DNA of 64,000 bases, taken from an uncultured Methanosarcinales archaeon. GTDB taxonomy: Archaea > Nanobdellota > Nanobdellia > Woesearchaeales > UBA12501. The notes under the pieces were generated by a model. That model ran no database searches. It was not told where the DNA came from and saw nothing but the letters and a program-made list of their open reading frames with translations. The position numbers were made by a program, and so were the translations under genes. Of the stretch, positions 29,766 to 62,615 are shown one piece after another (position 1 is the stretch's first letter; every line of letters starts with the position of its first letter). Location: contig CAYFJX010000008.1 of the NCBI GenBank assembly GCA_964343705.1, forward strand, positions 447 through 64,446, written 5' to 3'.

Positions 29766-29845
29766 ATTTCCGAACGCTCAGTCCCAAAACGTTTCTCGGA
29801 CCGCCGGCTTGGAAGGCCAGAATCCTACCATTAGACTACTGGTGC
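29747..29845 (-). tRNA. tRNA-Gly(UCC) with a roughly 28-nt non-canonical intron between the T-stem 5' strand and the T-loop
   Basis: GCACCAG/CTGGTGC acceptor; anticodon arm CTGGC-CTTCCAA-GCCGG. T-arm CCGAG...TTCAAAT-CTCGG is interrupted by AAACGTTTTGGGACTGAGCGTTCGGAAA (about 29767-29794). Mature length about 71 nt. Confidence 0.75.
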
Positions 29846-42903: not shown

Positions 42904-42962
42904 ATAATATTCTTGTCAGAAAAAGATTTACTTTATAAATGTTCCTGTTTAAAAAAATAATA

Positions 42963-44703: not shown

Positions 44704-44704
44704 G

Positions 44705-47700: not shown

Positions 47701-48181
47701 GTTCTGCAGGGCATGCTGTGTCAAGGTTTGCACATCCAGGAGGTGGTTGTGGTGCTTCTGCTTGTTGAATACCAACTGTTAATGTAGCAGGTCCTGCAAT
47801 ATCTTGCTGGCCAGCTTGTAATGTTACTTTTCCATTGAAATTGTACTCGCCTGGTTGTGCATTGTCAGGAATATGAAGTTTGTACGTGAAATCACCTGTT
47901 TCAACAGTACCTGTAAGACCATCAATAACTGCTTTTTTGTAATTATTACTTTGCACAGGATTACCATCAACAAATAACTCAAGGCCGTCTGGAGAATTTT
48001 CATTAATAATTAGAGAAGGTTCCTCACCAACTTCTTCAAAGTGAAGTGTTACTGTGACATCACTACCAGGTGCAGCAGAGTCTGCAGAGAATGAACGCGT
48101 AAGTGTTGACCCAGGTGCAGCTAGTACAAGAGGAACTAGTAATACTACTACAATAATCCACTTTACTAATTTGTCATACAT
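44705..48181 (-). CDS. 1158-aa (1171 from the alternative start at 48220) surface protein: three beta-sandwich modules, Cys-rich modules, TM anchor, repeat-bearing basic tail
   Basis: SP MYDKLVKWIIVVVLLVPLVLA. Three copies of the TVTL..SLIINE.VPEG module. Two P.L.PE...L....PTCEG..C....Y.C modules. TM WLWIIIICVILGVLGGGGAFAY. Tail with YIKYYSQHGYTRSQLTKHLAQYGVPQKFLDKIYKDLG and 2 x KPGFMDKLK.FFKKKP. Confidence 0.85.
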   Translation of the reverse strand: MYDKLVKWIIVVVLLVPLVLAAPGSTLTRSFSADSAAPGSDVTVTLHFEEVGEEPSLIINENSPDGLELFVDGNPVQSNNYKKAVIDGLTGTVETGDFTYKLHIPDNAQPGEYNFNGKVTLQAGQQDIAGPATLTVGIQQAEAPQPPPGCANLDTACPAEQVCVVNDCTRDGNRRDGEMCKINANCDANSGLVCIPDGDFKKCAVHQEPGGKCDENVDCQTGSCLDGVCGQPPPPPGQATTVRRSIQPFDGPRGGRVTVTLHVEEVGEEQSLIINEQVPEGLQLIVDGKQVKNNNFKKLFMEGGMGEAPSTKDIQYTVEIPADAELKIHEFSGVYTLQSGQQGIIGDNGVRVVEGAQAPPAARTLVTRSIQPPDAPQGGSATVTLTITEVAEEQSLIINEQVPEGVQLVVDNKVVANNNFKKLFMEGGMGEPPSSQTLTYKINIPENAELKWHEFVGKYTLQSGQFDIGGDNGIKVVAGGAPPQQPPEALPDPVLVPEELKKFLEGQLPRFKPVPTCEGAGCSSVAYSCDPTTNMLTKQSQACANQCSNAQCQAAPPPEPVLMPELIQQWLATAEISTFDPAATCEGENCRKVSYQCSEQNFVTVQEQACAQCPSDECDGIRQPGAQCAGDYDCPGDETCENNECILKPYPAIPLCKSLAINITNAAHHNGALLEPVRQFLGSCIPDGLDAACTGKVNELRGKNDDQLRVAIQDPNNAACFDQVFATAYCFEFDTTNNKDKKDRVRYFDANTKELRVERDVCDGANVNQFQCNENVAAAVAPQACQYGCIVGVCKPQSGCTAPSTGAVRVVTAAGVEIHNPVCTNNVLTRYTCDGQGYTQEDVVCDEGTTCQNGECKAPQVVVQQQGGNDGGNNQAGGGTGGGRRGRGGRGSRLSRQVICGDGLCQAAFGENQLNCPQDCGVPGGPAPAAPARPDDGIATAPSGLPSMPLEDPEAYVPPPAPDEEIPDTYPRQPTGSGPILDIPKEKEPKIWLWIIIICVILGVLGGGGAFAYNYMENKKLAAIPDYKKKKIIDYIKYYSQHGYTRSQLTKHLAQYGVPQKFLDKIYKDLGVPKDPAKPPVPGAAKPAVAAGAAGAAATKPGFMDKLKSFFKKKPEAGKPATPAAAKPAAPAGATKPGFMDKLKAFFKKKPKPPQGGA

Positions 48182-48204
48182 GGTATCATTGATGAAATGG
48201 TTGC

Positions 48205-51201
48205 TTAGCCTTTCAGCCAAGCTCCAATTGATTGAGTAAGTTTCAAGTCATTCATAGGATCCTTGTCTGCCTTGAGCCACCATCCAATATACATGGATAG
48301 CTCAAGATCACTGATCTTTCCATCACAAGGATCTGTATCTCCTGGAAGTTCACACTTTGCTGGTCCTGCCAGTTGTTTATCTTCTTTTGGAGGTTCAACT
48401 GGTGCTTCAGGAGGTTTTGCAGCTGGCAAGCACACATTGTCTTTACCACATGCAAGTCCATCATCACACTTGGGTTCTTGGTCACGGCAGAACTGGTTCA
48501 AGTTACCTTTGAGTACTGGTTCTTCAGCAGGTGGTTCTGCTGCAGGTTCTTTTGCTTGTGCACCAACACACACGCCACCTTCACACTTGCCGCTTGCACA
48601 AAGGAGTCCTATCTGACATGCTGAGCCATCTCTTCCTTTGCAAACACCATCTGAGCATGCGTTATCAGGACGACATTGATTATCAGATTCGCAAGGAAGC
48701 TGTTGGAATCGTCGCAATTCTAATTTGCCATTGACATCAACACAGGAGTGATAGAAACTATCTTTTCCACCTTCACCCATGCTATCATCTTTGATCGCGA
48801 CAACACTAGCACCAAGTTCATTACATTCATAACCAGTAGTTTGACTGAGCAATCTGATCCAGCTGAGTGCATCACCAACATTAATACATTTGTGTCCAAC
48901 ACCATCAATGTCTTGTAGTGCGCCTTCTTGTTGGCAGATGCCACCTGCTTCTGTAGGCCCTTTGTCATTCAAGTCACCTTCAACACATGCACCGTCTTTA
49001 CAAACAGCACCTACTGATACACAATCAAACTCTTCAAAACCAACTTGGTTATGTTGATTGCAATTACGATCTTGCACAAAGTTTTCTTTACCTTCTGCAC
49101 CACTACACACATCTTCGTATTCTTCATTGAATCCAAACATGACTTTAGAGGGAATAAATGCCTGAGTAGGAAGTAATTCACCACTTGCAGCGTCAAAGTC
49201 AACACACTTACCTTCTTGGGGATATGGTTCACCTGGTTTTGGATCAGGAACAATCACGCATCGTCCATTTTCACAATAGTAAGGTTGGCCAACGCTGTTC
49301 TTATATTGAGCACAATCTACTGGTTGATATTCTAAAACACCCGCGGAACACACAGCCTCATTAAGTTGATTGTGTACACCTTGATCACACACATCTTCAA
49401 GGCGTTGTTCTCCAAGACCCAGAATTGCAACAGCTTTTGTCACCACTTGTTCACTGACAGGAGTGTTACCTTGCAGATTATCATTGTCTTTACATGCAAC
49501 ATCTCCACTACACATGCCATCAACACAAGATAAACTTGCACAGTCAATATTACTATGACAAGACTGCCCAACATCATTAACACACCTGCAAGATTCATGT
49601 GCAACACCAAGTCCTGCGCACTCATCTTTCTTGCCCATCTTATTACAGATTTTTGATACACACTGTCGTCCTTCAGTGCAAAGGTCACTGCCTACTGTCA
49701 TTTCTCCACAGACATTACCTTGGAACGTGTTACACCAGCCAGTATTACACTGGTCATTGGTCATGCAAGCTTCACCAATGTTTTTACCTGCACATTTATT
49801 TTCTAAACAGTTCCTTGTTTTACACATGTCACCTGGGCTGTTAATACCTGGAACAACACCCACAACTTGCTTAACTAGTGAGAATCCATTACATTGTGCA
49901 CCTGCAGGCCGTAACTCACACTCTTTAGTAGTTGGGTTACAGTAATCAAGTACACACTGACCATCTGTTTCACACGCACCGCCTAGTGGTTGTGCTTCAC
50001 AGATTCCTGTTGGTTGTAGTCCTTTCCTATTATCATTAGGATCTACCCATTCCCTTTTACACCTGTTTGATGTACAAGTGTTCTTTCTTCCAATTACTTG
50101 ACATGCTTCACCATTAGCAGATCCAGTACATACACCTGCTACACACTGCCCTGTTTTACACTGGTCAGCATTTTCACATTCTGCGCCAACAGGGTACCAT
50201 TTACACTTGCCACTTGGGTGGTTTCTGTCACCTTCTTTGCTAAATAGTTCACATTTTCCTTCACATTGATCATCTGATTTACATGGCTTACCTTCTTCAA
50301 AAAGTTTACATGTTTTTGGAACATTTTTACCCATGTATGGACAATTATCACTAAGACATTCTTTTTTAGCTTTACATGTTGCTCCTAGTGGTTGCTTTGC
50401 TGCACATGTCTTGGTTGATCTTTCACAGTATTCTGTAGCAGGACAATCCCTATCACGGTTACATGCTGCTCCACTACCAACAAGTTTTGGTGCTTCACCA
50501 ACAACTGGTTCTTCAACAACAGCACCTTCTGCTGCACATGCACCATTATTACAACTGTTACATTGCAAGATTTCTTTTTTAATAAGTCCTCGTTCATCGC
50601 ATGAATATTTAATTACATTACAATTTGCTCCTTGGCAGGTTGGAGTCATAAGTTCTCGTGACGCTCCACCTTGTAAGTATTGCATAAGTGCTGGAGGTAA
50701 GAACGGTCTACCAATCATTGCTTCTTCAAGAGGGGATAATTCAGGTTCGGGAGCAGGTTCTGGTTCAGGGTCAGGTGCTGGAGGAGCTGCTTGGGCAACA
50801 CTAACACTTGTTGCACCTGAAATAGTTGCAGGATCTTTACCAAGTACTTTTGTAACACCTGAAAATGATGCTGGGCCTTGATTAGCAGGTGCAGTTGCAG
50901 TATATTCCAAATCCATATCTCTAACACCATTCATAGCAGTCCGTAACCATTTGATAACATTCCCATTAAGATTTCCGCTTTCTGTAATACCAGACACTTG
51001 CCAGCCTGCAGGAATTGTTTCTTCAATAATAACACCAGATGGAACATTTGCTTCATCAACATCCATTTTTAAAGTGACTTTCATAGAGCCCTGTGGAACT
51101 AGGGTTGGCGTACTTACTTCTCGTGAAACTGATACAGCGTGTGCTGCAGGAAGTACCACTAGTAGTACCATTACTACCATTATTAGTTCACGAGTTCGCA
51201 T
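48205..51201 (-). CDS. 998-aa secreted Cys-rich protein with N-terminal beta-sandwich module and C-terminal dockerin-like repeats
   Basis: SP MRTRELIMVVMVLLVVLPAAHA; divergent module VSREVS..GSMKVTLKM..GVIIEETIPAGWQV; about 100 Cys; C-terminus DTDPCDGKISDLELSMYIGWWL..DPMNDLKLTQSIGAWLKG. Confidence 0.85.
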   Translation of the reverse strand: MRTRELIMVVMVLLVVLPAAHAVSVSREVSTPTLVPQGSMKVTLKMDVDEANVPSGVIIEETIPAGWQVSGITESGNLNGNVIKWLRTAMNGVRDMDLEYTATAPANQGPASFSGVTKVLGKDPATISGATSVSVAQAAPPAPDPEPEPAPEPELSPLEEAMIGRPFLPPALMQYLQGGASRELMTPTCQGANCNVIKYSCDERGLIKKEILQCNSCNNGACAAEGAVVEEPVVGEAPKLVGSGAACNRDRDCPATEYCERSTKTCAAKQPLGATCKAKKECLSDNCPYMGKNVPKTCKLFEEGKPCKSDDQCEGKCELFSKEGDRNHPSGKCKWYPVGAECENADQCKTGQCVAGVCTGSANGEACQVIGRKNTCTSNRCKREWVDPNDNRKGLQPTGICEAQPLGGACETDGQCVLDYCNPTTKECELRPAGAQCNGFSLVKQVVGVVPGINSPGDMCKTRNCLENKCAGKNIGEACMTNDQCNTGWCNTFQGNVCGEMTVGSDLCTEGRQCVSKICNKMGKKDECAGLGVAHESCRCVNDVGQSCHSNIDCASLSCVDGMCSGDVACKDNDNLQGNTPVSEQVVTKAVAILGLGEQRLEDVCDQGVHNQLNEAVCSAGVLEYQPVDCAQYKNSVGQPYYCENGRCVIVPDPKPGEPYPQEGKCVDFDAASGELLPTQAFIPSKVMFGFNEEYEDVCSGAEGKENFVQDRNCNQHNQVGFEEFDCVSVGAVCKDGACVEGDLNDKGPTEAGGICQQEGALQDIDGVGHKCINVGDALSWIRLLSQTTGYECNELGASVVAIKDDSMGEGGKDSFYHSCVDVNGKLELRRFQQLPCESDNQCRPDNACSDGVCKGRDGSACQIGLLCASGKCEGGVCVGAQAKEPAAEPPAEEPVLKGNLNQFCRDQEPKCDDGLACGKDNVCLPAAKPPEAPVEPPKEDKQLAGPAKCELPGDTDPCDGKISDLELSMYIGWWLKADKDPMNDLKLTQSIGAWLKG

Positions 51202-51228
51202 TTTGAATCACCTTGAGTTTCATGTTTT

Positions 51229-53715
51229 TCATTGTTTTGACCATAGTTCAATTGCCATAAGCAATTCCATATCATCCACTTGATTATTTGACCATTTATC
51301 TATAAACATAAGTAGTTCCATATCATCCACTGTACCATCATTGCTTGTATCTGCTGGAGAGACTTGCTGTTCTGGTGCTGGTTCAGGTTCTGGTGCTGCC
51401 TCTAAACAGACACCATTAGCACATCCATTTGCACAGTTTTCAGGCTGGCTGAAAATATGATTATCTCCTGCATTACACACATACTCAGTAAGTTGACGTG
51501 CAGTAATACACCTGTCTGTCAAAGTCTGCCGTGAACCTTGGTATACACCAGTAGTGGTTCCTACTACAAAAGTATCTGGGCCACCGCGAATATTTACATT
51601 AGTATTATCACTATCTACACAACCTTGAGGAGCAGGCTCAGGTGTAGGAGTCGGCGTTGGTGTTGGATCAACAACATGGTCATCTAGCCTTTCTAGTCGA
51701 TCTCTAAATTCTTCTGGGTCTGGACGTTCAACATCAACTATGACTTCTTGAGCAGCTTCACGTCGGCATACCCCATCATAACAACCATGCTCACAGGGTA
51801 TACGAACATCAACAGTGTCTCCGTCCTTACATGCAGCTTCAATAAGATCAGAACCATCACAAGCATCAGGGATGACAAGGTCACCTTTGGTTACTGTTCC
51901 TTTCTGATGTATAGTCACTCCATTGTCTGAATCTGAACAGGAATCCAATAGTGCAAGAGCTGCCCGTGGATCAGGCACATCTGCTTGGATTGGGATTGCT
52001 GGATGAGCAACTTCAGGTTGCTGTGGGGTAGGTGGTTCATTAACTGGTGCAACATCTTCCCTGAATTTTCGTGGATCAGGTTGTACAACTTGTTGTGGAG
52101 GAGGAGGCACCTCAGCTAGCTTTACACATTTTTTGTTTTTACATACATTACTTCCACATTGATTATCTCGTTCACATGGACCATTTGTTTTTACAGGAGC
52201 ACGGCAAGTATATCGCTTAGACCTAACCCATTTACCACTCCTATATCCTCGCCTACAAACAAGGCCAGTCCTACAAAGTTCGTTCCCTAATGCATTAATA
52301 CACGGTCCCCTATTACCCACTGGTTTTCTACAGGTTGTTTTTTTAGATCTACCCCAGTAGTACCTTTTTGTTTTCTTACTTTTGTAATAAGAACGTCGAC
52401 AAACTAGCTTAGCAGGATCTTGAGAACATTCAGATGTTTGTTTACATGCTTGTTTTTCTTTTTTACCACCTGCTGCTCCACGAGCAGCTACTTCTGCTGC
52501 TGCTCGAGCTGCAGCATCTGCACGTTGTGCAGCTTCAAGTTCTTGTCTTCGCTTATCTTGATCTTGCCTCATTGCTTGTGCCATTGCTGCAACACCAGCT
52601 CCAGCATTACCCACCCTACTTGCAAGAGCTGCAACAGCTGCAAGAGCAGCTGCGTTTTCATCAAGTGAAGCAAAAGCTCCTTGGTTTATACTTCCTTTTA
52701 GTGGGCCATCAAGCATTGTTTTGTAATGATCAAATTGTCGAATACCCATTTGACTGTGTGAGACGCGAACTCCTGGACGTTTTATTGTGCCATCTTCAAC
52801 TGTCCATTCAAGAATGTCAAATGCATCATAATCAGTTCCATACCTTTTTGTCCCATCTGCGTTTCTCTGACCAGTTTCTCTCTTTTTTCGTGCAGTCACA
52901 ACTACTAGTGCGTTGCCTCCAACAGGATTAAAATGTTCTTTGTTTACAGCAAGACGAAGTATGCTTGGTGAGTTTTCATCTTTTATTAACCCACTAAGGC
53001 TGTGCCACCACACTGGATTGTTTTGCTCGTCTAAACCAATAATGTATGCACTATTACCATCTACACCAAGAGTGTTTTTAGGTGCCATTCCTGTTGTTGA
53101 AATAACAAATGTTACTTGGTCCTTGTTTGCTTTAGGTTCTATATTGTATCTAATATATTGGAACATTTTAGATTTGTCTTTTCCAGGACCATCCTGGTTT
53201 AGTCCAAATTTAAGATTTGTTTCAAACAGAGTGTCATGCACATCGCCTCTACCACCACAGTAAGGGTCTTTCCACCCTTTAGCTAAACAGACACCTTCTC
53301 TACAATCACCATCATGTTCGCAATACCTATCATTTCGTGCAAGACTTCTGCATTTTTTTGTGCTTCCTGCACGGTTTCTTCTACAGGTGAGATCTTTAGC
53401 GCATTCAGAAGGAGTGTTACATAATTCATTTCTTTGTTTTAACCGCAAAGCATCTGCGCCAGGTGCGCTACGTTGCACAGGTCGTTGTTGTGCTGCCATT
53501 TGTGCTCCAACCTGGAAACCTGCCTGTGCCCCTGCACTTATTCCAGGCGTACCAACACCTACTCCTGGTGCACGAACTTGCTGACCAGTAATAGCAGTGT
53601 TTATTTCCTCGCCCCACACCTGATACAGTGCAAGCAGACCTACAAGTACAATTACAAGAACCATGTACCTATCTAGTTTAGGCTTCGCTTTTTTTTGTGA
53701 TCTCTTTTTTGCCAT
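51229..53715 (-). CDS. 828-aa secreted protein: TM + ITGQQV, Cys knots, Cys-free beta domain, Ala/Arg/Glu helix, Cys-rich modules, C-terminal dockerin-like repeats
   Basis: N-terminus KKAKPKLDRYMVLVIVLVGLLALY..NTAITGQQV; C-terminus DTSNDGTVDDMELLMFIDKWSNNQVDDMELLMAIELWSKQ (EF-hand-like DxSxDGxVDxxE loop). Confidence 0.85.
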   Translation of the reverse strand: MAKKRSQKKAKPKLDRYMVLVIVLVGLLALYQVWGEEINTAITGQQVRAPGVGVGTPGISAGAQAGFQVGAQMAAQQRPVQRSAPGADALRLKQRNELCNTPSECAKDLTCRRNRAGSTKKCRSLARNDRYCEHDGDCREGVCLAKGWKDPYCGGRGDVHDTLFETNLKFGLNQDGPGKDKSKMFQYIRYNIEPKANKDQVTFVISTTGMAPKNTLGVDGNSAYIIGLDEQNNPVWWHSLSGLIKDENSPSILRLAVNKEHFNPVGGNALVVVTARKKRETGQRNADGTKRYGTDYDAFDILEWTVEDGTIKRPGVRVSHSQMGIRQFDHYKTMLDGPLKGSINQGAFASLDENAAALAAVAALASRVGNAGAGVAAMAQAMRQDQDKRRQELEAAQRADAAARAAAEVAARGAAGGKKEKQACKQTSECSQDPAKLVCRRSYYKSKKTKRYYWGRSKKTTCRKPVGNRGPCINALGNELCRTGLVCRRGYRSGKWVRSKRYTCRAPVKTNGPCERDNQCGSNVCKNKKCVKLAEVPPPPQQVVQPDPRKFREDVAPVNEPPTPQQPEVAHPAIPIQADVPDPRAALALLDSCSDSDNGVTIHQKGTVTKGDLVIPDACDGSDLIEAACKDGDTVDVRIPCEHGCYDGVCRREAAQEVIVDVERPDPEEFRDRLERLDDHVVDPTPTPTPTPEPAPQGCVDSDNTNVNIRGGPDTFVVGTTTGVYQGSRQTLTDRCITARQLTEYVCNAGDNHIFSQPENCANGCANGVCLEAAPEPEPAPEQQVSPADTSNDGTVDDMELLMFIDKWSNNQVDDMELLMAIELWSKQ

Positions 53716-53716
53716 G

Positions 53717-56098
53717 TTACTTTAGTTGTTGTTCTTGTGCGTGTTGTTTTATTTCGCCAAAGAAGAGTGGCATCCTAGATTTAATGCGAGCAATTTGTTC
53801 CTTGTCACTTCCATCAAATAATCCAGGCAAGTGTTTTCGAATAATAGACTCAATAACTGCCTCACCAATTTCATCTTTGATGTTATTCTTTGCTAGCCAT
53901 ACACCCAGCTCACGAGAATGAGCAAGACCCATACCAACAAGAACCTCACCAACCGGATCAACTTTTGTAGTTAAGCCCACTTTGTATTCCATTTGACGAG
54001 CCCACGGACCAGCAAGAGGTTCAACTAACTTTGTGATTTCTTTACTGTTTTTCATAAGACGAGCAGTCGGCCTACCCCAATAATGGTAACCAGACAAGAC
54101 AAGCCTGTCAAGTTTTTCATCTGCGTATTTGTTGCTTGCGTCTGTTAGACGATCTGATAAGAGACCTTGCCGGTTTAATTCTGTACAGATTACACTTGCC
54201 ACAGCACATTTACCATCAGTACAAGTGGCTTTACATTCAACAGCTGATCTACATGACGCACCAATATCTTTTTTTGCAGCACACTTTTTACGGTTACAAT
54301 AAAGAGTGGATTCACAATCAGCATGCTGAGAACATTTTTGCCCTGCTCTCTTTTTTGCTGGTGCGGGAGGGGGTGTTCCTTGTTGTTGCTGTTGTTGTGG
54401 TGCTGGTTGTGGTTCTGCTTGTTGTCTTTGTTGACAGGTACCATCCTTACACACATGCATTCTGCTTTTACATTGTTTTGTACTATAACATGATTGTCCT
54501 TCTTCTGCTTGGGGAGCGCAAGCACCATCAGTACACAAGTTAGAATTACATTGCCTATGAGTTACACATGGTTTACCCGGACGTTCGCGTCGCTGGCACT
54601 TCTTACCTCGATTAGTTTCTTTACAATACAAACTATGTTCGCACTGAGCATCTAGTTCACATGGCTTATTATTTTTAATTAATTTAAATGATCCTTTTGG
54701 CCAGCAGGTTCCAACACCATACATGTTTATTTCAGCGCAGTGATTAGATGAACACTGACTATTTTCACTACAAGAATCACCTAATTGACCACGTGAAACA
54801 ATGCAATCAATTTTCCCTCTTCCAGAACCTTTTGAAAATCCTTCATCACAGTGGTAACTAACTTGGCGTCCTTGTCGTTGTTCACGAGCAACACCATTAC
54901 GCCGCGCTGGCTGTCCTCGGGTGACACACGCACCGTCAACACAGACTTTTCCTAAAGAGGCACAATCAATCCTTTTTGATTCACGCTTTCCATTTTTACA
55001 TACTCCTTCTGCAAGACCTTCTGGTTCATTTTTTGTAGGTGTGCAGCTATCAGAAATTGCTCGTGTGTCAGCAAACACATACGATCGAACTTCTGCTTGC
55101 TTGTTTGTATTTCCTCTGCCTGCATCTTCGTCTCTACAGTTAGCCTTTTGCTTACACTGTCCTAAATAACAGAATCCACTACTGCATTGCGTGTTTCGTA
55201 CACATGATTTGCCATTGCCAATTTTTGACGCACACACTTGTGCTTTGTCAAGTTTAAACTGGTTTCTTTTTGCGCCTCCTGAATACAATGGCCACCTACA
55301 AATTTGGTTGCCTGTACAATCAGATTCTTCATAACACTTGTCAATACTGTCAATGTTTACAGCCGCTGCTTGCACTTCAGGTACTTCTTCAGCAGGAGGT
55401 GGTTGTGGAGGAGGTGCTTGAACTTCTGGTTGTTGGGGAGCATGCCGAGGAGCTGGTTCAGGTTGTGGTTCTGGTACTTCAGCAGCTAGTCCTACGAGTG
55501 GAGCGTCTTGACACTCACCATTAACACAGTTACAATCTTCTTCTCCAATACGAAGATCTCTGTCATCACATGACACATATCCTCGCTTGCCTGATTCAGC
55601 AGCAATAACATAATTATCGTCGATACAGTATGATCTGAAGTTTTCTCTTTTACCACCATTGTGAGTAAAAATAATATTACCCGGATTGTTTTCATCAAAG
55701 ACACATCGTTCCCCAACAAGAAGCATATTTAGTTTTGGAGGTGCACCGCCAGGTTGTGAACCAGTAGAACAAGAATTTCGTTTTGCATTTTCATTAGTGA
55801 TAGTTTCAGCAATAGTAAACTCGCCTGCTTGCACTGTTGAAACACCCACACAACCGCTACCATCACACCTACATTCTATGTCTGCAACAGCTAATCCTGA
55901 CACAGATGGTTCTTCAACAAGCACAATTTCGTTTGATTCCAGTAAGAAAAGACTTGCAGCCATTAGTGCGAGTACAGCAACAAAGAATAGGGTTTTGTCT
56001 TTGGGTAGAGAGGGCTTTGCCTGTTTAGAATATACTTTATGCCTCTTCCGAGCAGCCCCCTTTTTTGCGTGCTCTTTTTTTACTTTTTTATCTACCAT
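53717..56098 (-). CDS. 793-aa secreted Cys-rich protein with a 156-aa Cys-free C-terminal domain shared with the next gene
   Basis: N-terminal TM LFFVAVLALMAASLFLL then SVSGLAVADIEC; Pro-rich linker; many CX5-6C..G.C knots; C-terminal CTELNRQGLL...LPGLFDGSDKEQIARIKSRMPLFFGEIKQ. Confidence 0.85.
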   Translation of the reverse strand: MVDKKVKKEHAKKGAARKRHKVYSKQAKPSLPKDKTLFFVAVLALMAASLFLLESNEIVLVEEPSVSGLAVADIECRCDGSGCVGVSTVQAGEFTIAETITNENAKRNSCSTGSQPGGAPPKLNMLLVGERCVFDENNPGNIIFTHNGGKRENFRSYCIDDNYVIAAESGKRGYVSCDDRDLRIGEEDCNCVNGECQDAPLVGLAAEVPEPQPEPAPRHAPQQPEVQAPPPQPPPAEEVPEVQAAAVNIDSIDKCYEESDCTGNQICRWPLYSGGAKRNQFKLDKAQVCASKIGNGKSCVRNTQCSSGFCYLGQCKQKANCRDEDAGRGNTNKQAEVRSYVFADTRAISDSCTPTKNEPEGLAEGVCKNGKRESKRIDCASLGKVCVDGACVTRGQPARRNGVAREQRQGRQVSYHCDEGFSKGSGRGKIDCIVSRGQLGDSCSENSQCSSNHCAEINMYGVGTCWPKGSFKLIKNNKPCELDAQCEHSLYCKETNRGKKCQRRERPGKPCVTHRQCNSNLCTDGACAPQAEEGQSCYSTKQCKSRMHVCKDGTCQQRQQAEPQPAPQQQQQQGTPPPAPAKKRAGQKCSQHADCESTLYCNRKKCAAKKDIGASCRSAVECKATCTDGKCAVASVICTELNRQGLLSDRLTDASNKYADEKLDRLVLSGYHYWGRPTARLMKNSKEITKLVEPLAGPWARQMEYKVGLTTKVDPVGEVLVGMGLAHSRELGVWLAKNNIKDEIGEAVIESIIRKHLPGLFDGSDKEQIARIKSRMPLFFGEIKQHAQEQQLK

Positions 56099-56130
56099 TC
56101 TTTTTTTTATGTGTTGTTTTTTGCTTTTAC

Positions 56131-56144
56131 CATTTATAAAGTTT
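56131..56144 (-). promoter_or_regulatory. BRE/TATA-like box (minus-strand AAACTTTATAAATG) upstream of the 793-aa gene
   Basis: Lies about 35 nt upstream of the ATG at 56098. The same AAACTTTWTAAA core occurs upstream of genes starting at 33097, 35328, 5185, 59506 and 62615. Confidence 0.4.
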
Positions 56145-56146
56145 GT

Positions 56147-59100
56147 TTATTTTTTGCTTTGTTTTTGCTCCATTGCATATTGTTTTATTTCCCCATAGAA
56201 TAGTGGCATTCTAGTCTTAATCCGTGCAATTACTTCTTCTTCTGTGCCATCAAATAAGCCAGGAAGATAAGTACGTAGGATTGTTTCCATTGCTTCTTCA
56301 CTAATCTCTGATTTTGCCATGCCGTTTTCTACAAGCCAGACACCAAGTTCGTGTGAAAAGTCTTCTGCAATACTCAAGACAACTTCACCAACCTGATCTT
56401 CTTTTTTGGTGACTCCCATTTGATGTGCTACATAGCGGCCCCAAGCTAGACCAACTGGTTTTACAATCTCTGTTATGTCGCTTGATTTTTTCATAAGACG
56501 TGCTGTAGGCTTAGCACCATAATGATACCCAATCATATTGTACTTGTCCAGTTTTTGATCTGCAAAGTCAGCACTAGCTTTATGATGAGAATCAGGCATA
56601 AAACCTTGCCTGTTTAGCTCGGTGCAAACCACCTTACATTTTCCATTTTGACATCCTTTGGTACATTCAGCACCTTCACTACATGAAGCTCCCGTTGTCT
56701 TTTTTGCTGCACATTTTTTATTTGCACAATATAACCCTGCATCACAATCAGTGTGTGCAGAACATGACTCTCCTGCTTTCTTTTTTGGTGGAACATAACA
56801 TTTGTTGTTACGACACGTACCTGTTGAACAATCACCTGTTGTAGCACAATAACTATTTGGCGGAGCTTTGAAGTTATGACATGTCTTAGGAGCACCTTGT
56901 TGAGCTGGTCGACAAGAGTTGTAATTAAAATTCCAATCTTTACATTCATCATCAGTATTACACTCCCGTGGACCAGGTTTGTCCTCGCAAACTCCTTTGA
57001 ATTGTCCTTGCACTTTTGTTCGTTTACATTGTTTGTTTCGATCATCACAGTCCGGACTTTGCACACATTGTGAGTCTTCATGCACATCGAGACAGCTGGT
57101 TTCTTCTGTGTAACATACTTGGTTTTCACCACATTGATGACTGTATAAACATTTTTTAGAACACTTGTTGTTGTTACATTCCATAGGAGATTTGCAATCA
57201 GACTTTGCCTCACAATATTCACCTGCTTCCCCTGGAACAGGCCTACAAAGACGAGATAAAACAGCAGGATCATCTCCATACTGAATTAGATCCATACTAC
57301 ATGTCGCGCGACCATCGCAATCATCGTCTGTCACACATTGAGGTTGACCTCGGAATGAATAACACATACTTTCATGACATCCTTCACCTTCATTACAGTC
57401 ATCATCAGAAGCACAACCCTCATCAAGAACAGGTGTTGTTCCACCTTCTGTACACAGTCCAACAGTTGGATTACATGCAAGACCTGCATTTCGGTCACAG
57501 AGATCATTGATTACATCACATTCTTCACCTTCTCCAAGTTCACCTGGGCCACCAATGAGTCCGAGTGGTTCTCCACCTTGCATTGCTCGTACACCAGGTT
57601 CCCCTACAACAATTGTTGCTTGCATACTTTCCATTCCTTCATGAGGAATGCAGTAGTAAGGGAATGTTCCTGCAGTGTCAAAAGTGTGAGTAAATGTTGC
57701 TGATTGTGCCATCCAATCAGCTTGATCAGAACCAGAATCAAAACTACCATCTCGTGCAGTCACTGTATGTTTTGAGACATCATTATTAGTCCATACTACT
57801 GTGTCACCGACGTTAATAGTAAGTTCTTGAGGAGTAAAAGTAAAACTTTCAATAGCTATTTGATGTGTTTCCGCTTGATTACCTAAAAGCTGTAATTGAC
57901 CTTGTGCACATACACCACCTGCTTCGAGATTACATACACCACTTGCACAGTTACGGTTTTCACTACAATCCCCACCATCTTCAATAGCAACGCAAACACC
58001 GCCTTCACAAATATTTGATGCACACCTATCTGATGATGGACATGCTTGACCTGTTGCAATAAGTTCATCACCTTGCTCTGGTGGTTGATCTGGTGCTGGA
58101 GGTGGTTGATCACCAGGAGGTTGATCCCCCGGGGGTGCACCATCTGGAGCTGGTGGAGCACCGATTGCATTAGGGTCACCAATGCCAATACTTTGTGCAC
58201 CAAAGATGTTAAACTGGCCAGATTGTAGTGTAAAAATTCCTGAGAATGTGTACCAGCCTGGTGCAGCGTCAAGAGGAACTCTCACTGTGTAAGTAACTTC
58301 TTGTGACGAGGGAGCTTCCCCTATGCCACCTTCCATGTATAGTTTTCTGAAGAGGTTGTTTTCAACCGGCGCATTGTTTACAACTAATTGTAATCCTTCA
58401 GGCACTGTATCAGTAATAACAAGGGATTGTTCTTCACCTTGCTCATGAATAGCTAGTGTAACAGTAAACTCTCCACCAAGTGGAACAAATGCATTAGACA
58501 TTCGTCGTGTAACATAACTAGAATCTAGAGGAGGAGGTATTTGAGATGCTGCTGCCCTACATGATTTTATAAGAATTTGATACGTTCTTCCAACAGCGTC
58601 AGTGTAGTCACGTGCACTGCTTACAAGACAAACACCACCATCACATTCTGCGTCTGTTCTACATTCTGATTCCGCACCAATTTGTAAACAACGCAGATTG
58701 TAACATCCTTGTCCTTCTGCACATTGATCATCAGTTCTACATTGTCCGTCTGGAACAGGTGGTTGATCTTGTTGTTGTACTTCTGGAGGTTGTTCAGGCT
58801 CGCCTGGTTGTGCTGCAACACACACTTTCTCCTGACAGGTTAAACCATCTCCACAATCATCAACATACTCGCACGCGCCACCTGCAAGAACAGTATAACA
58901 GCGACGGCCAAGACCATTCATTTTATCTACACAGCCTTTGTTAGCATCAGCAACAGTGCAGTCTTCGTTTGAATCACACCGCAGAAGATTAGTACAGTCA
59001 CCATCTTGACAGCCACATTTTATTATGTTTATTTGCGCGTCTTTTCCAGAACAAACATTTTTAATAAGTTTTTTTGACGACGGTACTGTTTGATAATTCA

Positions 59101-59506
59101 TGTCACTACAGCCACTTTTAAGACCTTGAAGATTACCATTGGCAAGCGTCAATGAAACAATGCCATTTTGCGAGGAACATGCTTGACCTTGTAAAAGAAA
59201 ACTTCTGAGTGTGCTTGCAGGTTTTTTAGTTACTGTTGCACACGTTGTTTTTTTGGTTGCTTTTTGTGCTATTTCAAAGGGCCCTGTTTGGCCAAGGAGC
59301 ATAACCCCACTTGTTTGTGCAGCGTTAGCACTGCATTCCGCATCAGGACGTGCAATCACTTGCCCAGTGATCCCTACTGGACTGTATATAACTGAAATTG
59401 CTCCGAAAACAACAATAAGAAACGCTGCAATGAGTGCAGGATTATTATATCTGGACAGAGTACTCTGAAGTCTACCAACTAATCCCCTTTTTTGTGGTTT
59501 TTTCAT
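56147..59506 (-). CDS. 1119-aa secreted modular protein containing a cupredoxin (amicyanin/plastocyanin-like) domain
   Basis: N-terminus KRGLVGRLQSTLSRYNN-TM-VGITGQVI. One beta-sandwich module (about 58178-58513). Cupredoxin at about 57602-57868 with ligand pattern H(KHTV)...C-I-P-H-E-G-M. C-terminal CTELNRQG domain (about 56150-56626). Confidence 0.85.
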   Translation of the reverse strand: MKKPQKRGLVGRLQSTLSRYNNPALIAAFLIVVFGAISVIYSPVGITGQVIARPDAECSANAAQTSGVMLLGQTGPFEIAQKATKKTTCATVTKKPASTLRSFLLQGQACSSQNGIVSLTLANGNLQGLKSGCSDMNYQTVPSSKKLIKNVCSGKDAQINIIKCGCQDGDCTNLLRCDSNEDCTVADANKGCVDKMNGLGRRCYTVLAGGACEYVDDCGDGLTCQEKVCVAAQPGEPEQPPEVQQQDQPPVPDGQCRTDDQCAEGQGCYNLRCLQIGAESECRTDAECDGGVCLVSSARDYTDAVGRTYQILIKSCRAAASQIPPPLDSSYVTRRMSNAFVPLGGEFTVTLAIHEQGEEQSLVITDTVPEGLQLVVNNAPVENNLFRKLYMEGGIGEAPSSQEVTYTVRVPLDAAPGWYTFSGIFTLQSGQFNIFGAQSIGIGDPNAIGAPPAPDGAPPGDQPPGDQPPPAPDQPPEQGDELIATGQACPSSDRCASNICEGGVCVAIEDGGDCSENRNCASGVCNLEAGGVCAQGQLQLLGNQAETHQIAIESFTFTPQELTINVGDTVVWTNNDVSKHTVTARDGSFDSGSDQADWMAQSATFTHTFDTAGTFPYYCIPHEGMESMQATIVVGEPGVRAMQGGEPLGLIGGPGELGEGEECDVINDLCDRNAGLACNPTVGLCTEGGTTPVLDEGCASDDDCNEGEGCHESMCYSFRGQPQCVTDDDCDGRATCSMDLIQYGDDPAVLSRLCRPVPGEAGEYCEAKSDCKSPMECNNNKCSKKCLYSHQCGENQVCYTEETSCLDVHEDSQCVQSPDCDDRNKQCKRTKVQGQFKGVCEDKPGPRECNTDDECKDWNFNYNSCRPAQQGAPKTCHNFKAPPNSYCATTGDCSTGTCRNNKCYVPPKKKAGESCSAHTDCDAGLYCANKKCAAKKTTGASCSEGAECTKGCQNGKCKVVCTELNRQGFMPDSHHKASADFADQKLDKYNMIGYHYGAKPTARLMKKSSDITEIVKPVGLAWGRYVAHQMGVTKKEDQVGEVVLSIAEDFSHELGVWLVENGMAKSEISEEAMETILRTYLPGLFDGTEEEVIARIKTRMPLFYGEIKQYAMEQKQSKK

Positions 59507-59535
59507 TATCCCGTTTAAAAATAGAGCTATTTCCT

Positions 59536-59550
59536 TTTATATAGTTTGTG
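59536..59550 (-). promoter_or_regulatory. BRE/TATA-like box (minus-strand CAAACTATATAAAAGG) upstream of the 1119-aa gene
   Basis: About 30-40 nt upstream of the ATG. The flanking 50 nt align with the upstream region of the 1009-aa gene (62616-62670). Confidence 0.4.
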
Positions 59551-59585
59551 TTTTGGTGAATAGAAAGTGAAAAGAAGAGCCTAAT

Positions 59586-62500
59586 TTAAATGAAAGCATG
59601 CCATGGATACTCTTTCACACAATAACTATTTACGCAGACAAGATCACCATTACATTCTCCAGCTGAACATGGCATGTTAAAACCATTACGTTCAAGATCC
59701 CCTTCTCCAGTACCATCTATGCATTGGTTGTAGATACATTTACCCTTTACACACTCTTTATCATTACTACAAAACATACCAATACCTGCAAGACAGCGCA
59801 TTCCTGCTTGATCACTTGCTTGACAAGTGTACCCCATCTCACATTGTTTATTTATGAAACAGTAATCAGTTGCCCCCCCTGCATTCTGCCTATAGCTTAT
59901 CTCTTCACTTACAGCGTCAGCATAGGCACCACTTGAGTCAGTGTTAAGCTGGATAGTTACATCCCTCACATTAAAGCCCATGGTTGAAATTCGTTCTATG
60001 GTGAATGCGTCATGAGTATTTCCCCAATTACCAGTTGAATCGCTTCCCGCAAGAATTTTTACTGTGTTGGTTTCTCCTGATCGAAGGCGTTCACGAGGAA
60101 TAACAACATGTACTGCACGTTCTTGCCCGTCTTTTAGAACAGGGTCATTTCCTTGCACATAAATTTGTTTGTTCATACGATATACATAGTCAGAATCTTC
60201 AGCAGGATTTTTTACAAAGTAAGTTACAAATTGTCCTGCCCTGTATGCAAGGCTGTTACTACTAACTAAACCTTTTGTAGCAACATTAAAGACCAATTGA
60301 TCAGACCCTTCATTGATATACGGATCAAAAGTAATAATTGCTTCTTTCACCCCATTAGGTCCAAATTCAATTGCATCATTTACCAGTACTGGCTGGCCTA
60401 GTGTTTCTTGAAGTTCTCTTCGTGCTTCAGCTTCAGCTTCAGCAGCAGCTTGCCGTTGTCGTTCTTCAGCAGCTGCACGCTCGGCTTCAGCTTGCCCTTG
60501 CATTTCAGCAAATCCTTCTTCACTAAAAATACATGCCTTGCTTGCAGGATTACAGGTTAAGCCAGGTTTACATCGCGCATAGCCTTCACCACATGGGTGA
60601 CCAAAGTCTCCTGAAGGTGTTCCTTCACAAATGCCTTCCCCTGGACCTTCTTTTTTACATATGCCACTGTCACAATCATTGTGATAGTTACATGCACCAC
60701 CTATTGGACTTACACACCTGTTAAATCCTGGGCCTAATTTTTTACATATACCTGTTGCACATTGCTCGTTTCCTCGACAATCACTACCAAACTGCATTGT
60801 TTGACATGATCCTTGCCAGCAGAAGTTTGATTGACATTGTGCAAAGCTTTGACATGCTTCACCTTCTGATTTCCCTGAACAAGCACCATTGTCACATTTT
60901 TTAGTCATACACATGTCATCTGCAATGTTCATAAACTGGTTTTTAGGTGTGTTCATGTGTGCTTTTTGCTCGTCAGTTGGCATGAAACATTCCATCCCAG
61001 CAGGTCTTAATTCACATTCTTCAGATTTACTGTTACAATAACCAAGAACACATTGTTCATCTATTGCACACCGTCGTCCAAGTTGTTGTGGCTTACATGT
61101 TTTATCAGGACTCACACCTGTGAAGTCTCCGTTTTCATCAAATAAGTTGTCACCAGCGCATTTACCACTGAAACATTCTTTTGCTGTGGAACATGCTTCG
61201 CCATTTGGCTTGCCACCACATGCTCCGTCAATACATTGATTTGAATCGCATTGTTCATTAGTGTCACAAGGGAAGGTTACAGGTCGTAAACGACATTGGG
61301 ATTTACAATACCCTGTAAGACATTGCTCGTGACGGTCACATGCTTTTCCTTTTGCAACCATTTCACACTTTTGCGTTTTTCGATTACACATCCCTTGAAT
61401 ATGCCCTTTACAATCCCTACTTGTTTTACATGCAATGTCTGGTAGGTCTGGTCGTTGTGCAGGTGGAGCTGGCAAGCCAGCAATAGTAAGTTTGTAATCT
61501 CCTGCAATATCAGTTTGCCCGCTTTGCAGTGTTCGTTTTCCAATAAAGATGTAGTCTCCACCAATAACATCTTGAGGGATTTCGACTTCATACGTAAACT
61601 TTGTTGACTCAACAGTGCCTGTTAAACCGTCGACAATTGCTTTTCTGTAATTGTTTGCTGGAGCACGCTTACCATCTTTTAATAATTCTAATCCAGTTGG
61701 CACTTGCTCATTAATAATAAGAGAGGGTTCTTGCCCAACTTCCTGGAAATGTAACGTAACAGTAACTTTGCTTCCAGGTGCAGGTGTTTTAGTGTTAAAA
61801 GTTCGTGAAAGGAGTGACTTTCCAGGTGGTGCTTGAGCTGCTTGGCCCACAACTGGTTCTTTTACAGGTTCCTTAGCTGGTGGAGGTGAAGGAGCTACTG
61901 CAACAAGAGGAGCTTCACCACTTGTACAAATATTATTAATACAGTTTAATTCACCAACGCAATCATCAAGAAAATGACAAGCAGCACCTTCTTGGAGATA
62001 ACATCTTTTGCCAAGGCCATTTCCTTTGTCTACACATTCACTTTGCGCATTTTGTACTCTGCAATCTTCTGTTGCAGCGCACTGCTTTAAGTTTTTACAG
62101 TCGCCATTGTCACAATCACATCCAATAATGTTTAGTTTGACGTCTTTATTATCATTATAACAAAAAGATTTTACCAGCTTAGCTGATGTTGCAGCTTCAG
62201 CATATCCTGCTGCTGTACACCCACTTTTGAATCGTTTCTTTGTGCCTCCCTCAAGTGTGAGTGTAAGAATTCCTGCAGCATCTTCACACAGTTCACCAAG
62301 TAACAAAAAACTTTTTACTGACGCGGCAGGGTAATTTTCTTGTTGACCACAACTGTTTTGCTTACTCATTTTACCAGCAACAGCATACGGTCCCGCTTGG
62401 CCAAGAAGCATAACACCGGTTGCAGTTCCACCTACAGCAGTACATTCTCCTGCAGGTCGTGCAATGGCTTTACCTGTAATACCAATAGGACCATACATCA

Positions 62501-62615
62501 AAGAAAACAAGCCAACTCCAATAATAAAAACAGCAGCAATTACAGCAAGATTGTTGTACCTGGATAAAGTACTCTTAAGACTATCACCTAACCCTCTTTT
62601 TGCTGTCTGTTTCAT
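59586..62615 (-). CDS. 1009-aa secreted modular protein, N-terminal 230 aa paralogous to the 1119-aa protein
   Basis: N-terminus KRGLGDSLKSTLSRYNN-TM-IGITGKAI; one beta-sandwich module (LSRTFNT..SKVTVTLHF..SLIINEQVPTGLELL); Cys knots; AEAERAAAEERQRQAAAEAEAEARRELQ helix followed by a Cys-free beta domain. Confidence 0.85.
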   Translation of the reverse strand: MKQTAKRGLGDSLKSTLSRYNNLAVIAAVFIIGVGLFSLMYGPIGITGKAIARPAGECTAVGGTATGVMLLGQAGPYAVAGKMSKQNSCGQQENYPAASVKSFLLLGELCEDAAGILTLTLEGGTKKRFKSGCTAAGYAEAATSAKLVKSFCYNDNKDVKLNIIGCDCDNGDCKNLKQCAATEDCRVQNAQSECVDKGNGLGKRCYLQEGAACHFLDDCVGELNCINNICTSGEAPLVAVAPSPPPAKEPVKEPVVGQAAQAPPGKSLLSRTFNTKTPAPGSKVTVTLHFQEVGQEPSLIINEQVPTGLELLKDGKRAPANNYRKAIVDGLTGTVESTKFTYEVEIPQDVIGGDYIFIGKRTLQSGQTDIAGDYKLTIAGLPAPPAQRPDLPDIACKTSRDCKGHIQGMCNRKTQKCEMVAKGKACDRHEQCLTGYCKSQCRLRPVTFPCDTNEQCDSNQCIDGACGGKPNGEACSTAKECFSGKCAGDNLFDENGDFTGVSPDKTCKPQQLGRRCAIDEQCVLGYCNSKSEECELRPAGMECFMPTDEQKAHMNTPKNQFMNIADDMCMTKKCDNGACSGKSEGEACQSFAQCQSNFCWQGSCQTMQFGSDCRGNEQCATGICKKLGPGFNRCVSPIGGACNYHNDCDSGICKKEGPGEGICEGTPSGDFGHPCGEGYARCKPGLTCNPASKACIFSEEGFAEMQGQAEAERAAAEERQRQAAAEAEAEARRELQETLGQPVLVNDAIEFGPNGVKEAIITFDPYINEGSDQLVFNVATKGLVSSNSLAYRAGQFVTYFVKNPAEDSDYVYRMNKQIYVQGNDPVLKDGQERAVHVVIPRERLRSGETNTVKILAGSDSTGNWGNTHDAFTIERISTMGFNVRDVTIQLNTDSSGAYADAVSEEISYRQNAGGATDYCFINKQCEMGYTCQASDQAGMRCLAGIGMFCSNDKECVKGKCIYNQCIDGTGEGDLERNGFNMPCSAGECNGDLVCVNSYCVKEYPWHAFI

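Follow-up and report, generated by a model that had tools for sequence, protein, structure and literature searches.

Amicyanin (1id2, 1aac) and plastocyanin (2plt, 1bxu) are free proteins of about 100 amino acids that work with defined partners, methylamine dehydrogenase in the former case and cytochrome f and PSI in the latter. Cupredoxins can also be parts of larger proteins, as in 9cck, a multicopper oxidase/NirK-type enzyme of N. maritimus, in which a C-terminal cupredoxin is tethered to the larger protein; in such copper enzymes the tethered cupredoxin is a built-in electron donor. Plant phytocyanins, including the early-nodulin-like proteins, display a cupredoxin on the cell surface by means of a long, non-catalytic stalk, and they are eukaryotic, GPI-anchored and in many cases devoid of copper ligands. 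DPANN archaea have mostly been reconstructed as fermentative, host-dependent organisms without electron transport chains. Copper cupredoxins keep turning up in DPANN, and members including Woesearchaeota carry orphan CuA-type proteins, described as 'nosZ-like' or CoxII-like, for which other respiratory components were not found (PMC10936187). Here, we describe a cupredoxin domain within p1119 (P0001), a protein of 1119 amino acids from a tiny Woesearchaeota (DPANN) archaeon. The window refers throughout to the whole stretch of DNA that was analysed, 64,000 nucleotides in length.

Gene, modules and genomic setting of p1119

The gene is read from the minus strand, and its range in Table 1 counts the stop codon; translating 57602-57868 from the plus strand yields only nonsense interrupted by stops. 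Three separately assembled ENA metagenome contigs (ERZ930061, ERZ930070, ERZ930068) encode an identical 1119-aa protein with the same neighbours, and a chimeric assembly is therefore unlikely. The GC3 of the cupredoxin domain is 0.19 compared with 0.22 for the p1119 gene. Since this is like the rest of the gene, the domain was regarded as a resident, ameliorated part of it, and a recent horizontal insertion was rejected.

The sequence-only reading had placed the domain inside a Cys-rich surface protein of this length. This proved correct, the outward-facing orientation being predicted from a single helix behind a charged N-terminus. On the Kyte-Doolittle scale, windows of 19 residues exceed 1.5 only where they begin at residues 20-33, and the N-terminus ahead of this sole hydrophobic helix has a charge of +6. 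The helix is predicted to be a signal anchor with N-in/C-out topology, leaving a cytoplasmic tail of only about 21 residues; p1119 has no signalling domain. The mosaic protein is thus predicted to be membrane-anchored, disulfide-rich and exposed at the surface. The tail and a downstream motif, ITG[KQ]xIARP, are conserved in the neighbouring paralogue p1009 and in P0147, P0148 and P0154, and the last three were the only further homologues of the N-terminal family domain recovered from 1.84 billion representatives. Residues 1-486 of p1009 align with residues 1-525 of p1119 at 33% identity (BLASTP, E 8e-71). Paralogue BLAST detected further copies of the Ig-like module in p1171 (three), p1009 (one) and p365 (one); its Pfam match to DUF11 is weak (15.8 bits, under the cutoff).

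The cupredoxin is placed between two flexible linkers, one of 14 residues following the first knot modules and a Gly/Pro linker of 27 residues preceding the Cys-knot array, which resembles the knots of p793, p1171 and p1009 and contains a weak Pfam match to DUF7107 at residues 914-957. The ORF contains 74 Cys in total, with C619 alone inside the cupredoxin. About 72 of them, in knot spacing, lie outside the cupredoxin and the C-terminal module, and some 36 disulfides are predicted to stabilise the knot modules.

The C-terminal module opens with an invariant V-C-T-E-L-N-R-Q-G and is matched by residues 582-791 of p793. Its AF2 model consists of seven helices (pLDDT 95.8), and no fold match was found in the PDB. 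The first 100 or so residues recur in phage proteins, as indicated by BFVD matches and 70 IMG/VR loci. A tblastn search of GenBank phages found nothing, PHROGs has no family for the module, and a word-index homology search was almost empty.

Table 1. Features of the p1119 gene, with positions counted from the first nucleotide of the window.
Feature	Position	Strand	Basis
Whole p1119 gene; mosaic, Cys-rich, predicted to be anchored	56147..59506	-	ORF list, three ENA contigs, paralogue BLAST, Pfam
Basic tail (residues 1-21, six K/R) and hydrophobic helix (about 22-44)	59375..59506	-	Kyte-Doolittle scan
N-terminal Cys-containing family domain, residues 55-230	58817..59344	-	BLASTP; common to p1009 and p793
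Ig-like (DUF11-like) module, residues 330-450	58157..58519	-	Paralogue BLAST, 39-49% identity
Two four-Cys knot modules, residues 489-533	57908..58042	-	Cys positions; shortly before the cupredoxin
Cupredoxin (type-1 copper) domain, residues 548-635	57602..57865	-	PF00127, PDB phmmer, AF2, Foldseek, conserved columns
His580, first (N-terminal) copper ligand, in clade signature K-H-T-V-T-A	57767..57769	-	Invariant column; codon checked
Cys619-Ile-Pro-His622, thiolate and second His ligand	57641..57652	-	Conserved columns; amicyanin alignment
Met625-Glu-Ser-Met628, two candidate axial Met	57623..57634	-	Homologue profile, MAFFT, AF2 strand
Cys-knot module array, residues 663-957, 40 Cys	56636..57520	-	Cys positions; paralogue similarity
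C-terminal all-alpha module, residues 958-1119	56150..56635	-	54% identity to p793 (paralogue BLAST), AF2

The gene belongs to a minus-strand run (43606-62615) of seven genes for mosaic surface proteins, in which Ig-like, Cys-knot and terminal modules are shuffled. A cupredoxin is found in p1119 only, and neither Pfam nor paralogue BLAST detected one in the six neighbouring paralogues. As had been remarked from the sequence, the energy genes visible in the window are only an A-type ATPase operon and a H+-PPase. Pfam searches of the window gave no match to an oxidase or a cytochrome, and the CxxCH motif is absent from p1119, its paralogues and every window ORF of at least 150 aa, on which ground a cytochrome partner in the window was rejected. 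The window also has no cop or cus genes near p1119. The partner search covered 64-78 kb of the genome.

The cupredoxin domain and its copper ligands

Residues 548-635 are a cupredoxin-fold module with an intact clade signature. The domain was first proposed, as a type-1 copper domain, for residues about 547-635 at 57602-57868; the assignment holds, and its range needs only a small trim, T547 being extra and the exact domain running from H548 to G635 (57602-57865). The Pfam profile PF00127 (Copper-bind), one of the checks suggested with that assignment, scored 47.1 bits over residues 549-634 (profile positions 6-98/99; gathering score 21.2, E 3.5e-12). Searching the PDB with phmmer recovered 59 cupredoxin chains with E<0.01, and amicyanin 1id2 was matched with E 6e-12. 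Such matches lie well outside what chance would produce. A profile made from 39 homologues with the query left out gave the domain 143 bits, and every one of the 23 columns conserved in these homologues is retained by p1119, including all four ligand columns. Structure prediction, the other suggested check, gave a cupredoxin fold of seven beta-strands (AF2, pLDDT 92.6, pTM 0.84). Foldseek matched this model to plastocyanin 2plt (E 1e-8), amicyanin and N. maritimus cupredoxins with TM about 0.7, and the best 50 of 512 PDB matches at E<=0.001 were plastocyanins, amicyanins and other cupredoxin-fold copper proteins or domains.

A His/Cys/His/Met set, as proposed in the sequence-only reading, sits in the ligand columns of the homologue alignment, with H580, C619, H622 and M628 each aligned to one of them. 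Misaligned ligands had been offered as grounds for abandoning the assignment. The H580 column is invariant in 40 sequences and aligns to the ligand His of amicyanin in 'MPHNV'. The Cys column is conserved in 38 of 39 homologues and the H622 column in all 39, and phmmer aligned C619-I-P-H622 to the C-T-P-H of amicyanin. A CuA site, which is binuclear (C-x3-C-x3-H), was rejected on the basis of the single Cys in the domain; C619 is the sole Cys between residues 534 and 662.

The identity of the axial Met is less clear-cut. The loop had been described as C-x-P-H-x-x-M, and C-I-P-H-E-G-M is literally present, but the Met so named, M625, is probably not the axial ligand. In the homologue profile, M625-E626-S627 ('mes') is an insertion, and M628 falls on the Met that is conserved in the strand 'M-x-A-T-I-V-V'; it occupies the MAFFT column M89, in which 38 of 39 homologues have Met, and the last strand of the AF2 model starts directly after it. 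Pairwise phmmer alignment to amicyanin pairs M625 instead. From the alignment and the predicted secondary structure, M628 is the more likely axial ligand, and either Met could reach the copper. The ligand loop is then probably C-x2-H-x5-M, compared with the amicyanin-type C-x2-H-x2-M, and M625-S627 would be a lineage-specific insertion of three residues. A second lineage-specific insertion, DQADW, is at residues 594-598. As judged from the alignment, H580, C619 and H622 with M628 (or M625) form the pattern of a type-1 site.

The ligand set had been likened to that of amicyanin and plastocyanin. As family membership this did not hold, since all NCBIfam equivalog scores are far under their trusted cutoffs: plastocyanin TIGR02656 gave 45.5 bits (cutoff 87.85), amicyanin TIGR02657 38.7 (110.2), halocyanin TIGR03102 42.0 (93.8) and pseudoazurin TIGR02375 22.2 (109.85). 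By sequence, the domain belongs to an uncharacterised clade annotated as 'cupredoxin family copper-binding protein', with the signature HTVTA-DGSFDSG...C-x2-H...M-x-A-T-I-V-V, and it is 45-58% identical to stand-alone members of 75-175 aa.

Possible roles of the copper site

The sequence-only reading had suggested that the domain could serve extracellular or inter-cell electron transfer, or redox sensing. We interpret p1119, with middling confidence, as a surface-displayed one-electron copper site that acts on an external partner. The N-terminal helix would anchor the protein and leave all later modules outside the cell, and the domain would bind one Cu that cycles between Cu(I) and Cu(II). 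The site would then pass single electrons to or from an extracellular counterpart, which may be a redox species, mineral or in solution, or a redox protein borne by a host or partner cell; the DQADW and MES insertions may tune partner recognition and redox potential. External exchange is considered most likely because p1119 and the 64 kb around it are without a heme motif, a second metal site or a respiratory enzyme. The sequence shows no connection between the copper site and either the membrane or a further cofactor, and in a window with no cytochrome, oxidase or heme motif nothing wires it to the energy metabolism of the cell itself, which the site probably does not feed. In a much more specific version, an episymbiotic Woesearchaeote without a respiratory chain would plug its tethered blue-copper site into the extracytoplasmic carriers of its partner, drawing or dumping single electrons across the junction in a protein-borne, cytochrome-free interspecies exchange; we regard this version as quite improbable.

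Several observations run against the external-partner reading in general. One Cu in 1119 aa, several modules away from the membrane, makes a poor conduit. A respiratory partner may also be encoded outside the 64-78 kb of the genome that were covered. The six neighbouring paralogues have no cupredoxin and their shuffled modules look adhesive, and the cupredoxin may simply be a co-opted binding surface. Around the genes of the nearest stand-alone homologues, no redox gene is conserved from which a class of partner might be guessed.

The main rival is adhesion or recognition, in which the fold would be a rigid beta-sandwich surface in a host-contact adhesin and any bound copper would be structural, with no flow of electrons. 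In a variant, the cupredoxin may mimic a host electron carrier and dock on a redox enzyme at the host surface. The occurrence of the cupredoxin in just one of seven shuffled surface proteins and the lack of a redox partner in the window both fit this explanation, and the fold serves copper-free at cell surfaces in animal ephrins and in the early-nodulin-like phytocyanins of plants. These known adhesive proteins have, however, lost the ligands, whereas p1119 keeps all four together with the 23 conserved clade positions, which argues against a purely structural module because decay would normally erode them; nor does GC3 give any sign of an acquisition so recent that decay had too little time. 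Adhesion is considered rather unlikely.

Copper handling is improbable. A surface trap, sensor or chaperone-like site could shield a small cell in which efflux machinery is missing, or report its copper or redox state, and the ligand set is, by its sequence, a genuine copper-binding one; small stand-alone homologues are moreover often orphan genes beside unrelated functions, such as the cation-efflux gene about 3.5 kb from P0015. But p1119 would sequester copper inefficiently, with a single T1 site, buried and kinetically inert, in 1119 residues; it has no signalling domain and only a short cytoplasmic tail, and cop and cus genes are missing nearby. A built-in oxidant, whose Cu(II) would take electrons from Cys thiols and so help to form or maintain the knot disulfides after export, is very improbable: the 72 knot-spaced Cys directly flank the domain in the same chain, but a cupredoxin is absent from the five Cys-rich paralogues whose knots are as numerous, and a T1 site alone is not re-oxidisable by O2, and we know of no precedent for such a role. 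Almost no credence is given to an artefact, whether a chimera in the assembly of the metagenome or a fragment of a decaying pseudogene that chance had fused in frame. Public data contain no second example of the architecture, but the three assemblies agree in product and neighbours, the frame is uninterrupted, GC3 is uniform and the clade signature is fully conserved.

An intact T1 site outside a DPANN cell would offer a way into the cupredoxin puzzle in this group that is small, can be expressed and is easy to assay. If the site is redox-active toward a host protein, this would point to a symbiosis that involves electron exchange; if it serves adhesion alone, it would illustrate the reuse of electron-carrier folds in fast-evolving contact proteins.

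Comparison with known copper proteins

Amicyanin and plastocyanin are the best solved-structure matches to the p1119 domain and share with it the fold and the order His...Cys-x2-His...Met. They differ in being free proteins rather than part of a 1119-aa anchored one, and in having Asn after the first His where p1119 has Thr. The clade members found in the word-index search are small proteins of one or two domains, secreted or lipid-anchored, none of which has Cys-knot or Ig-like partners, and the gene neighbourhoods of three close stand-alone homologues revealed no shared redox partner. The tethered cupredoxin of 9cck is 31% identical to the p1119 domain (E 3e-10), but p1119 lacks a catalytic copper domain and no T2/T3 site was detected in it; a multicopper oxidase or copper nitrite reductase was rejected, Pfam giving one cupredoxin match in 1119 aa. 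Plant phytocyanins, which are also displayed at the cell surface, are related to p1119 by fold but not by sequence. The DPANN CuA proteins (PMC10936187) are likewise extracytoplasmic copper cupredoxins of the same lineage, but they are short, stand-alone and binuclear, whereas p1119 has a mononuclear T1 pattern within a giant adhesin-like protein.

The fusion was found in one population only, so that conservation of its architecture is unusable as evidence of function. No other protein among the 1.84 billion representatives joins a cupredoxin of this type to the family N- or C-terminal modules, a GTDB genome scan found no relatives of the whole protein, and a word-index search with full-length p1119 returned only itself, its candidates being swamped by low-complexity, Cys-rich words. 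The arrangement had been called unusual, and its exact architecture is indeed unique in public data; copper modules in big extracellular proteins are, on the other hand, common. The exhaustive search of the same representatives showed that this cupredoxin clade is widespread in large extracellular multidomain proteins, such as P0122 (3670 aa, 12 matched cupredoxin stretches) and P0123 (1154 aa, 8 Cupredoxin_1 stretches). Repeated cupredoxin domains were confirmed by Pfam in the long matches P0123, P0125, P0129-P0133 and P0135. Reading of the sequences by eye revealed PKD repeats and a sorting-type C-terminus in P0122, P0124 and P0134 and SLH-type repeats beside the cupredoxin in P0263, and P0162 is a further precedent for surface display in the clade. 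Giants with up to a dozen cupredoxin modules form a large, apparently undescribed class, on which a literature search found no paper, and they may do with copper what multiheme cytochrome wires do with heme. They resemble p1119 in that cupredoxins of this clade are built into very large chains, secreted or at the cell surface, alongside Ig-like, PKD or SLH-type modules. Their 3-12 tandem modules are compatible with electron hopping along the chain, whereas p1119 has a single module; and they are bacterial by their sorting signals, whereas p1119 is archaeal and holds its module among disulfide knots.

The cupredoxin domain and its ligands

Four lines of evidence from sequence comparison and modelling identify residues 548-635 of p1119, the 1119-aa Cys-rich surface protein, as a cupredoxin, in agreement with the sequence-only reading. 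The Pfam family Copper-bind (PF00127), with a gathering score of 21.2, matched over profile positions 6-98 of 99 at 47.1 bits. A phmmer search of all PDB sequences with the domain gave amicyanin 1id2 as the top match (E 6e-12), followed by plastocyanins, pseudoazurins and a copper enzyme of N. maritimus with a fused cupredoxin. The AlphaFold2 model of the domain, with 39 homologues as alignment input, had seven strands (pLDDT 92.6, pTM 0.84), and was matched by Foldseek to plastocyanin, amicyanin and archaeal cupredoxins (E about 1e-8, TM about 0.7). The domain had been placed at residues about 547-635; it is present there, but the numbering was off by one at the start, and plus-strand translation of 57602-57868 gave no meaningful peptide.

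H580, H622 and three other positions were invariant in a 40-sequence alignment, C619 and M628 were each kept in 38 of 39 homologues, and p1119 departed from the consensus at none of the 23 columns with ≥80% conservation. A genuine copper site is very probable by sequence and model. Because C619 is the sole cysteine across residues 534-662, the site would be mononuclear, and a binuclear CuA site was ruled out. For the axial ligand, M628 is favoured over M625, giving a predicted ligand loop C-x2-H-x5-M: in a query-free profile M625-E626-S627 formed an insertion and M628 was aligned with the conserved Met opening the 'M-x-A-T-I-V-V' strand, which begins immediately after M628 in the model. A pairwise alignment paired M625, not M628, with the amicyanin Met. 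The string C-I-P-H-E-G-M, earlier read as the ligand loop, is literally present, but the profile and the strand start disfavour its Met.

The ligand residues likened to those of amicyanin and plastocyanin are conserved, but membership of these subfamilies, or of halocyanin and pseudoazurin, was ruled out by NCBIfam scores far under the cutoffs (plastocyanin, 45.5 bits vs 87.85; halocyanin, 42.0 vs 93.8; amicyanin, 38.7 vs 110.2; pseudoazurin, 22.2 vs 109.85). By sequence it falls instead into a large clade of uncharacterised proteins with the signature HTVTA-DGSFDSG...FTHTFDTAGT..Y.C..H..M.ATIVV; the clade members among the matches listed were secreted proteins of 75-175 aa with 45-58% identity to the domain. 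The neighbourhoods of three stand-alone clade homologues had no redox partner gene in common.

Architecture and genomic setting of p1119

A single hydrophobic helix (about residues 22-44) follows a tail with six basic residues, and p1119 is therefore predicted to be N-in with the remainder outside the cell. Two motifs, 'KRG' near the N-terminus and 'ITG[KQ]xIARP' right behind the helix, are common to p1119, its paralogue p1009 and three outside homologues; a role in processing or sorting is possible.

Features of the window and of two phage loci
Feature	Nucleotides	Strand	Remarks
Beta-class carbonic anhydrase gene	13335-14015	+	between ATPase B and D subunit genes; Pro_CA 55.6 bits
DDE transposase	27570-28529	-	
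Free-standing LAGLIDADG ORF	29007-29765	+	end overlapped by tRNA
tRNA	29747-29845	-	99 nt
SMC gene	35413-40542	-	interrupted by an intein that includes a LAGLIDADG homing-endonuclease domain; residues 55-583 match Intein_splicing at 97.6 bits
Second LAGLIDADG ORF	42939-43595	+	
Mosaic surface-protein run	43606-62615	-	seven consecutive genes: 365, 1171, 998, 828, 793, 1119, 1009 aa
p998 C-terminus	48205-48330	-	paired repeats
p828 C-terminus	51229-51350	-	paired repeats
p793 all-alpha C-terminal module	about 53720-54200	-	
p1119 ORF	56147-59506	-	1119 aa, from ORF list
p1119 family-specific Cys-containing domain			residues 55-230, then disulfide knots
p1119 Ig-like DUF11-type module			residues 330-450
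p1119 Pro-rich linker and two knots			between Ig-like module and cupredoxin
p1119 cupredoxin	57602-57865	-	H548-G635, exact mapping; linkers of 14 and 27 residues
p1119 knot region			C-terminal to cupredoxin; about 40 further Cys
p1119 all-alpha C-terminal module	56150-56635	-	162 residues
p1119 'KRG' region	59340-59506	-	
p1009 'KRG' region	62450-62615	-	
Phage locus L090	5050-6330		module match
Phage locus L095	5062-6348		module match

The p1119 gene is the sixth of the run, whose products are built from the same modules in different combinations (DUF11-like Ig, Cys knots, N-terminal anchor domain, C-terminal TM-plus-tail or alpha modules); the run looks like a diversifying contact-protein island. 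The six other proteins have no cupredoxin. The terminal repeats of p998 and p828 (DGKISDLELSMYIGWW...; DGTVDDMELLMFIDKW...DDMELLMAIELW) resemble dockerin or EF-hand by eye, and Pfam matches none of them.

The C-terminal module of p1119 and p793 opens with an invariant [IV]C[TS]EL[NH]RQG, then GY[HY]Y..P. It was modelled with pLDDT 95.8 from an alignment of only six sequences, had no fold match in PDB and is covered by neither Pfam nor PHROG families. Its first ~100 residues were also found in 70 IMG/VR viral contigs; at the two loci inspected, the match forms the C-terminal end of phage proteins of ~426 aa encoded amid virion or ejection genes (phrog_3287 'virion structural', phrog_2534 'released from the phage upon host infection', endolysin/transglycosylase). 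An envelope-interaction module common to phages and DPANN surface proteins is possible.

That the fusion is an artefact is a minor alternative: three ENA metagenome contigs from separate assemblies encode a protein identical to p1119, flanked by the same genes (ERZ930061, ERZ930070, ERZ930068; project PRJEB17505), which argues against a chimera, and the GC3 of the domain (0.19) matches that of the whole gene (0.22), giving no sign of recent transfer.

AtpA shares 74% identity with Woesearchaeota MAGs; its best 60-odd genome matches are Woesearchaeota/Nanoarchaeota-type DPANN archaea. The other window genes include an H+-pyrophosphatase, an A-type ATPase operon and housekeeping genes; no cytochrome or oxidase was found in the 64-kb window, nor CxxCH in any sizeable ORF. 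The 99-nt tRNA presumably contains an intron, since Rfam found it and ARAGORN missed it.

Distribution of the fusion

HMMER was run exhaustively against 1.84 billion representatives and gave 22,015 matches. Beyond the window, the family N-terminal domain occurred only in P0147, P0148 and P0154, and the C-terminal module only in P0171, P0197, P0249 and P0256; since none of these seven has a cupredoxin, the exact architecture is, by sequence, a singleton in this set. The fusion had been called unusual, which is right for the exact architecture, but giant surface proteins with cupredoxin modules are common in sequence space. The best-ranked matches were mostly large proteins with many modules of the same clade, such as P0122 (3670 aa, 12 matched stretches), P0123 (1154 aa, eight Cupredoxin_1 stretches) and P0131 (nine Copper-bind stretches). 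Their sequences also carry PKD repeats, sorting-type C-termini and Pro/Thr linkers, with SLH-type repeats in P0263 and CHRD-like repeats in P0162, which points to an extracellular or cell-surface location.

Giant secreted proteins of up to 3670 aa with 5-12 tandem cupredoxins, from public metagenomes (P0122, P0124, P0134, P0142, P0170, P0123, P0125, P0129-P0133), alternate the loop C-I-P-H-G-x-P-G-G-x-G-M with Ig-like modules, followed at the end by PKD repeats and a sorting-type C-terminus. A role as electron conduits based on copper is possible; no paper was found on tandem or multi-cupredoxin giant proteins.

Possible function and comparison with known systems

Sequence and model together establish p1119 as a predicted extracytoplasmic, anchored, disulfide-rich mosaic with an intact type-1 (T1) cupredoxin; the earlier observation was confirmed and its interpretation partly supported. 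The domain would hold one copper and perform one-electron chemistry, exchanging electrons with an external partner (a surface redox protein of a host or neighbour, or a dissolved species) and not wiring copper chemistry into the metabolism of the archaeon itself. This reading, to which we give an even chance, is the most economical because p1119 lacks a second cofactor and no respiratory enzyme is encoded in the visible part of the genome; that electron transfer to an outside partner is physiological is somewhat less likely than not. The main rival, in which p1119 is a contact protein that uses the fold for binding, suits the module-shuffled, adhesin-like setting of the family and is rather unlikely given the fully conserved ligand set. 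Copper handling and a built-in thiol oxidant are minor alternatives to electron exchange with an external partner.

Orphan CuA-type cupredoxins were reported in DPANN archaea without other respiratory parts (PMC10936187). In p1119, as a variation on a known arrangement, a single T1 module is joined to archaeal knot-rich adhesin modules; this is of moderate interest, the domain being small and testable and its lineage one from which no redox protein would be expected.
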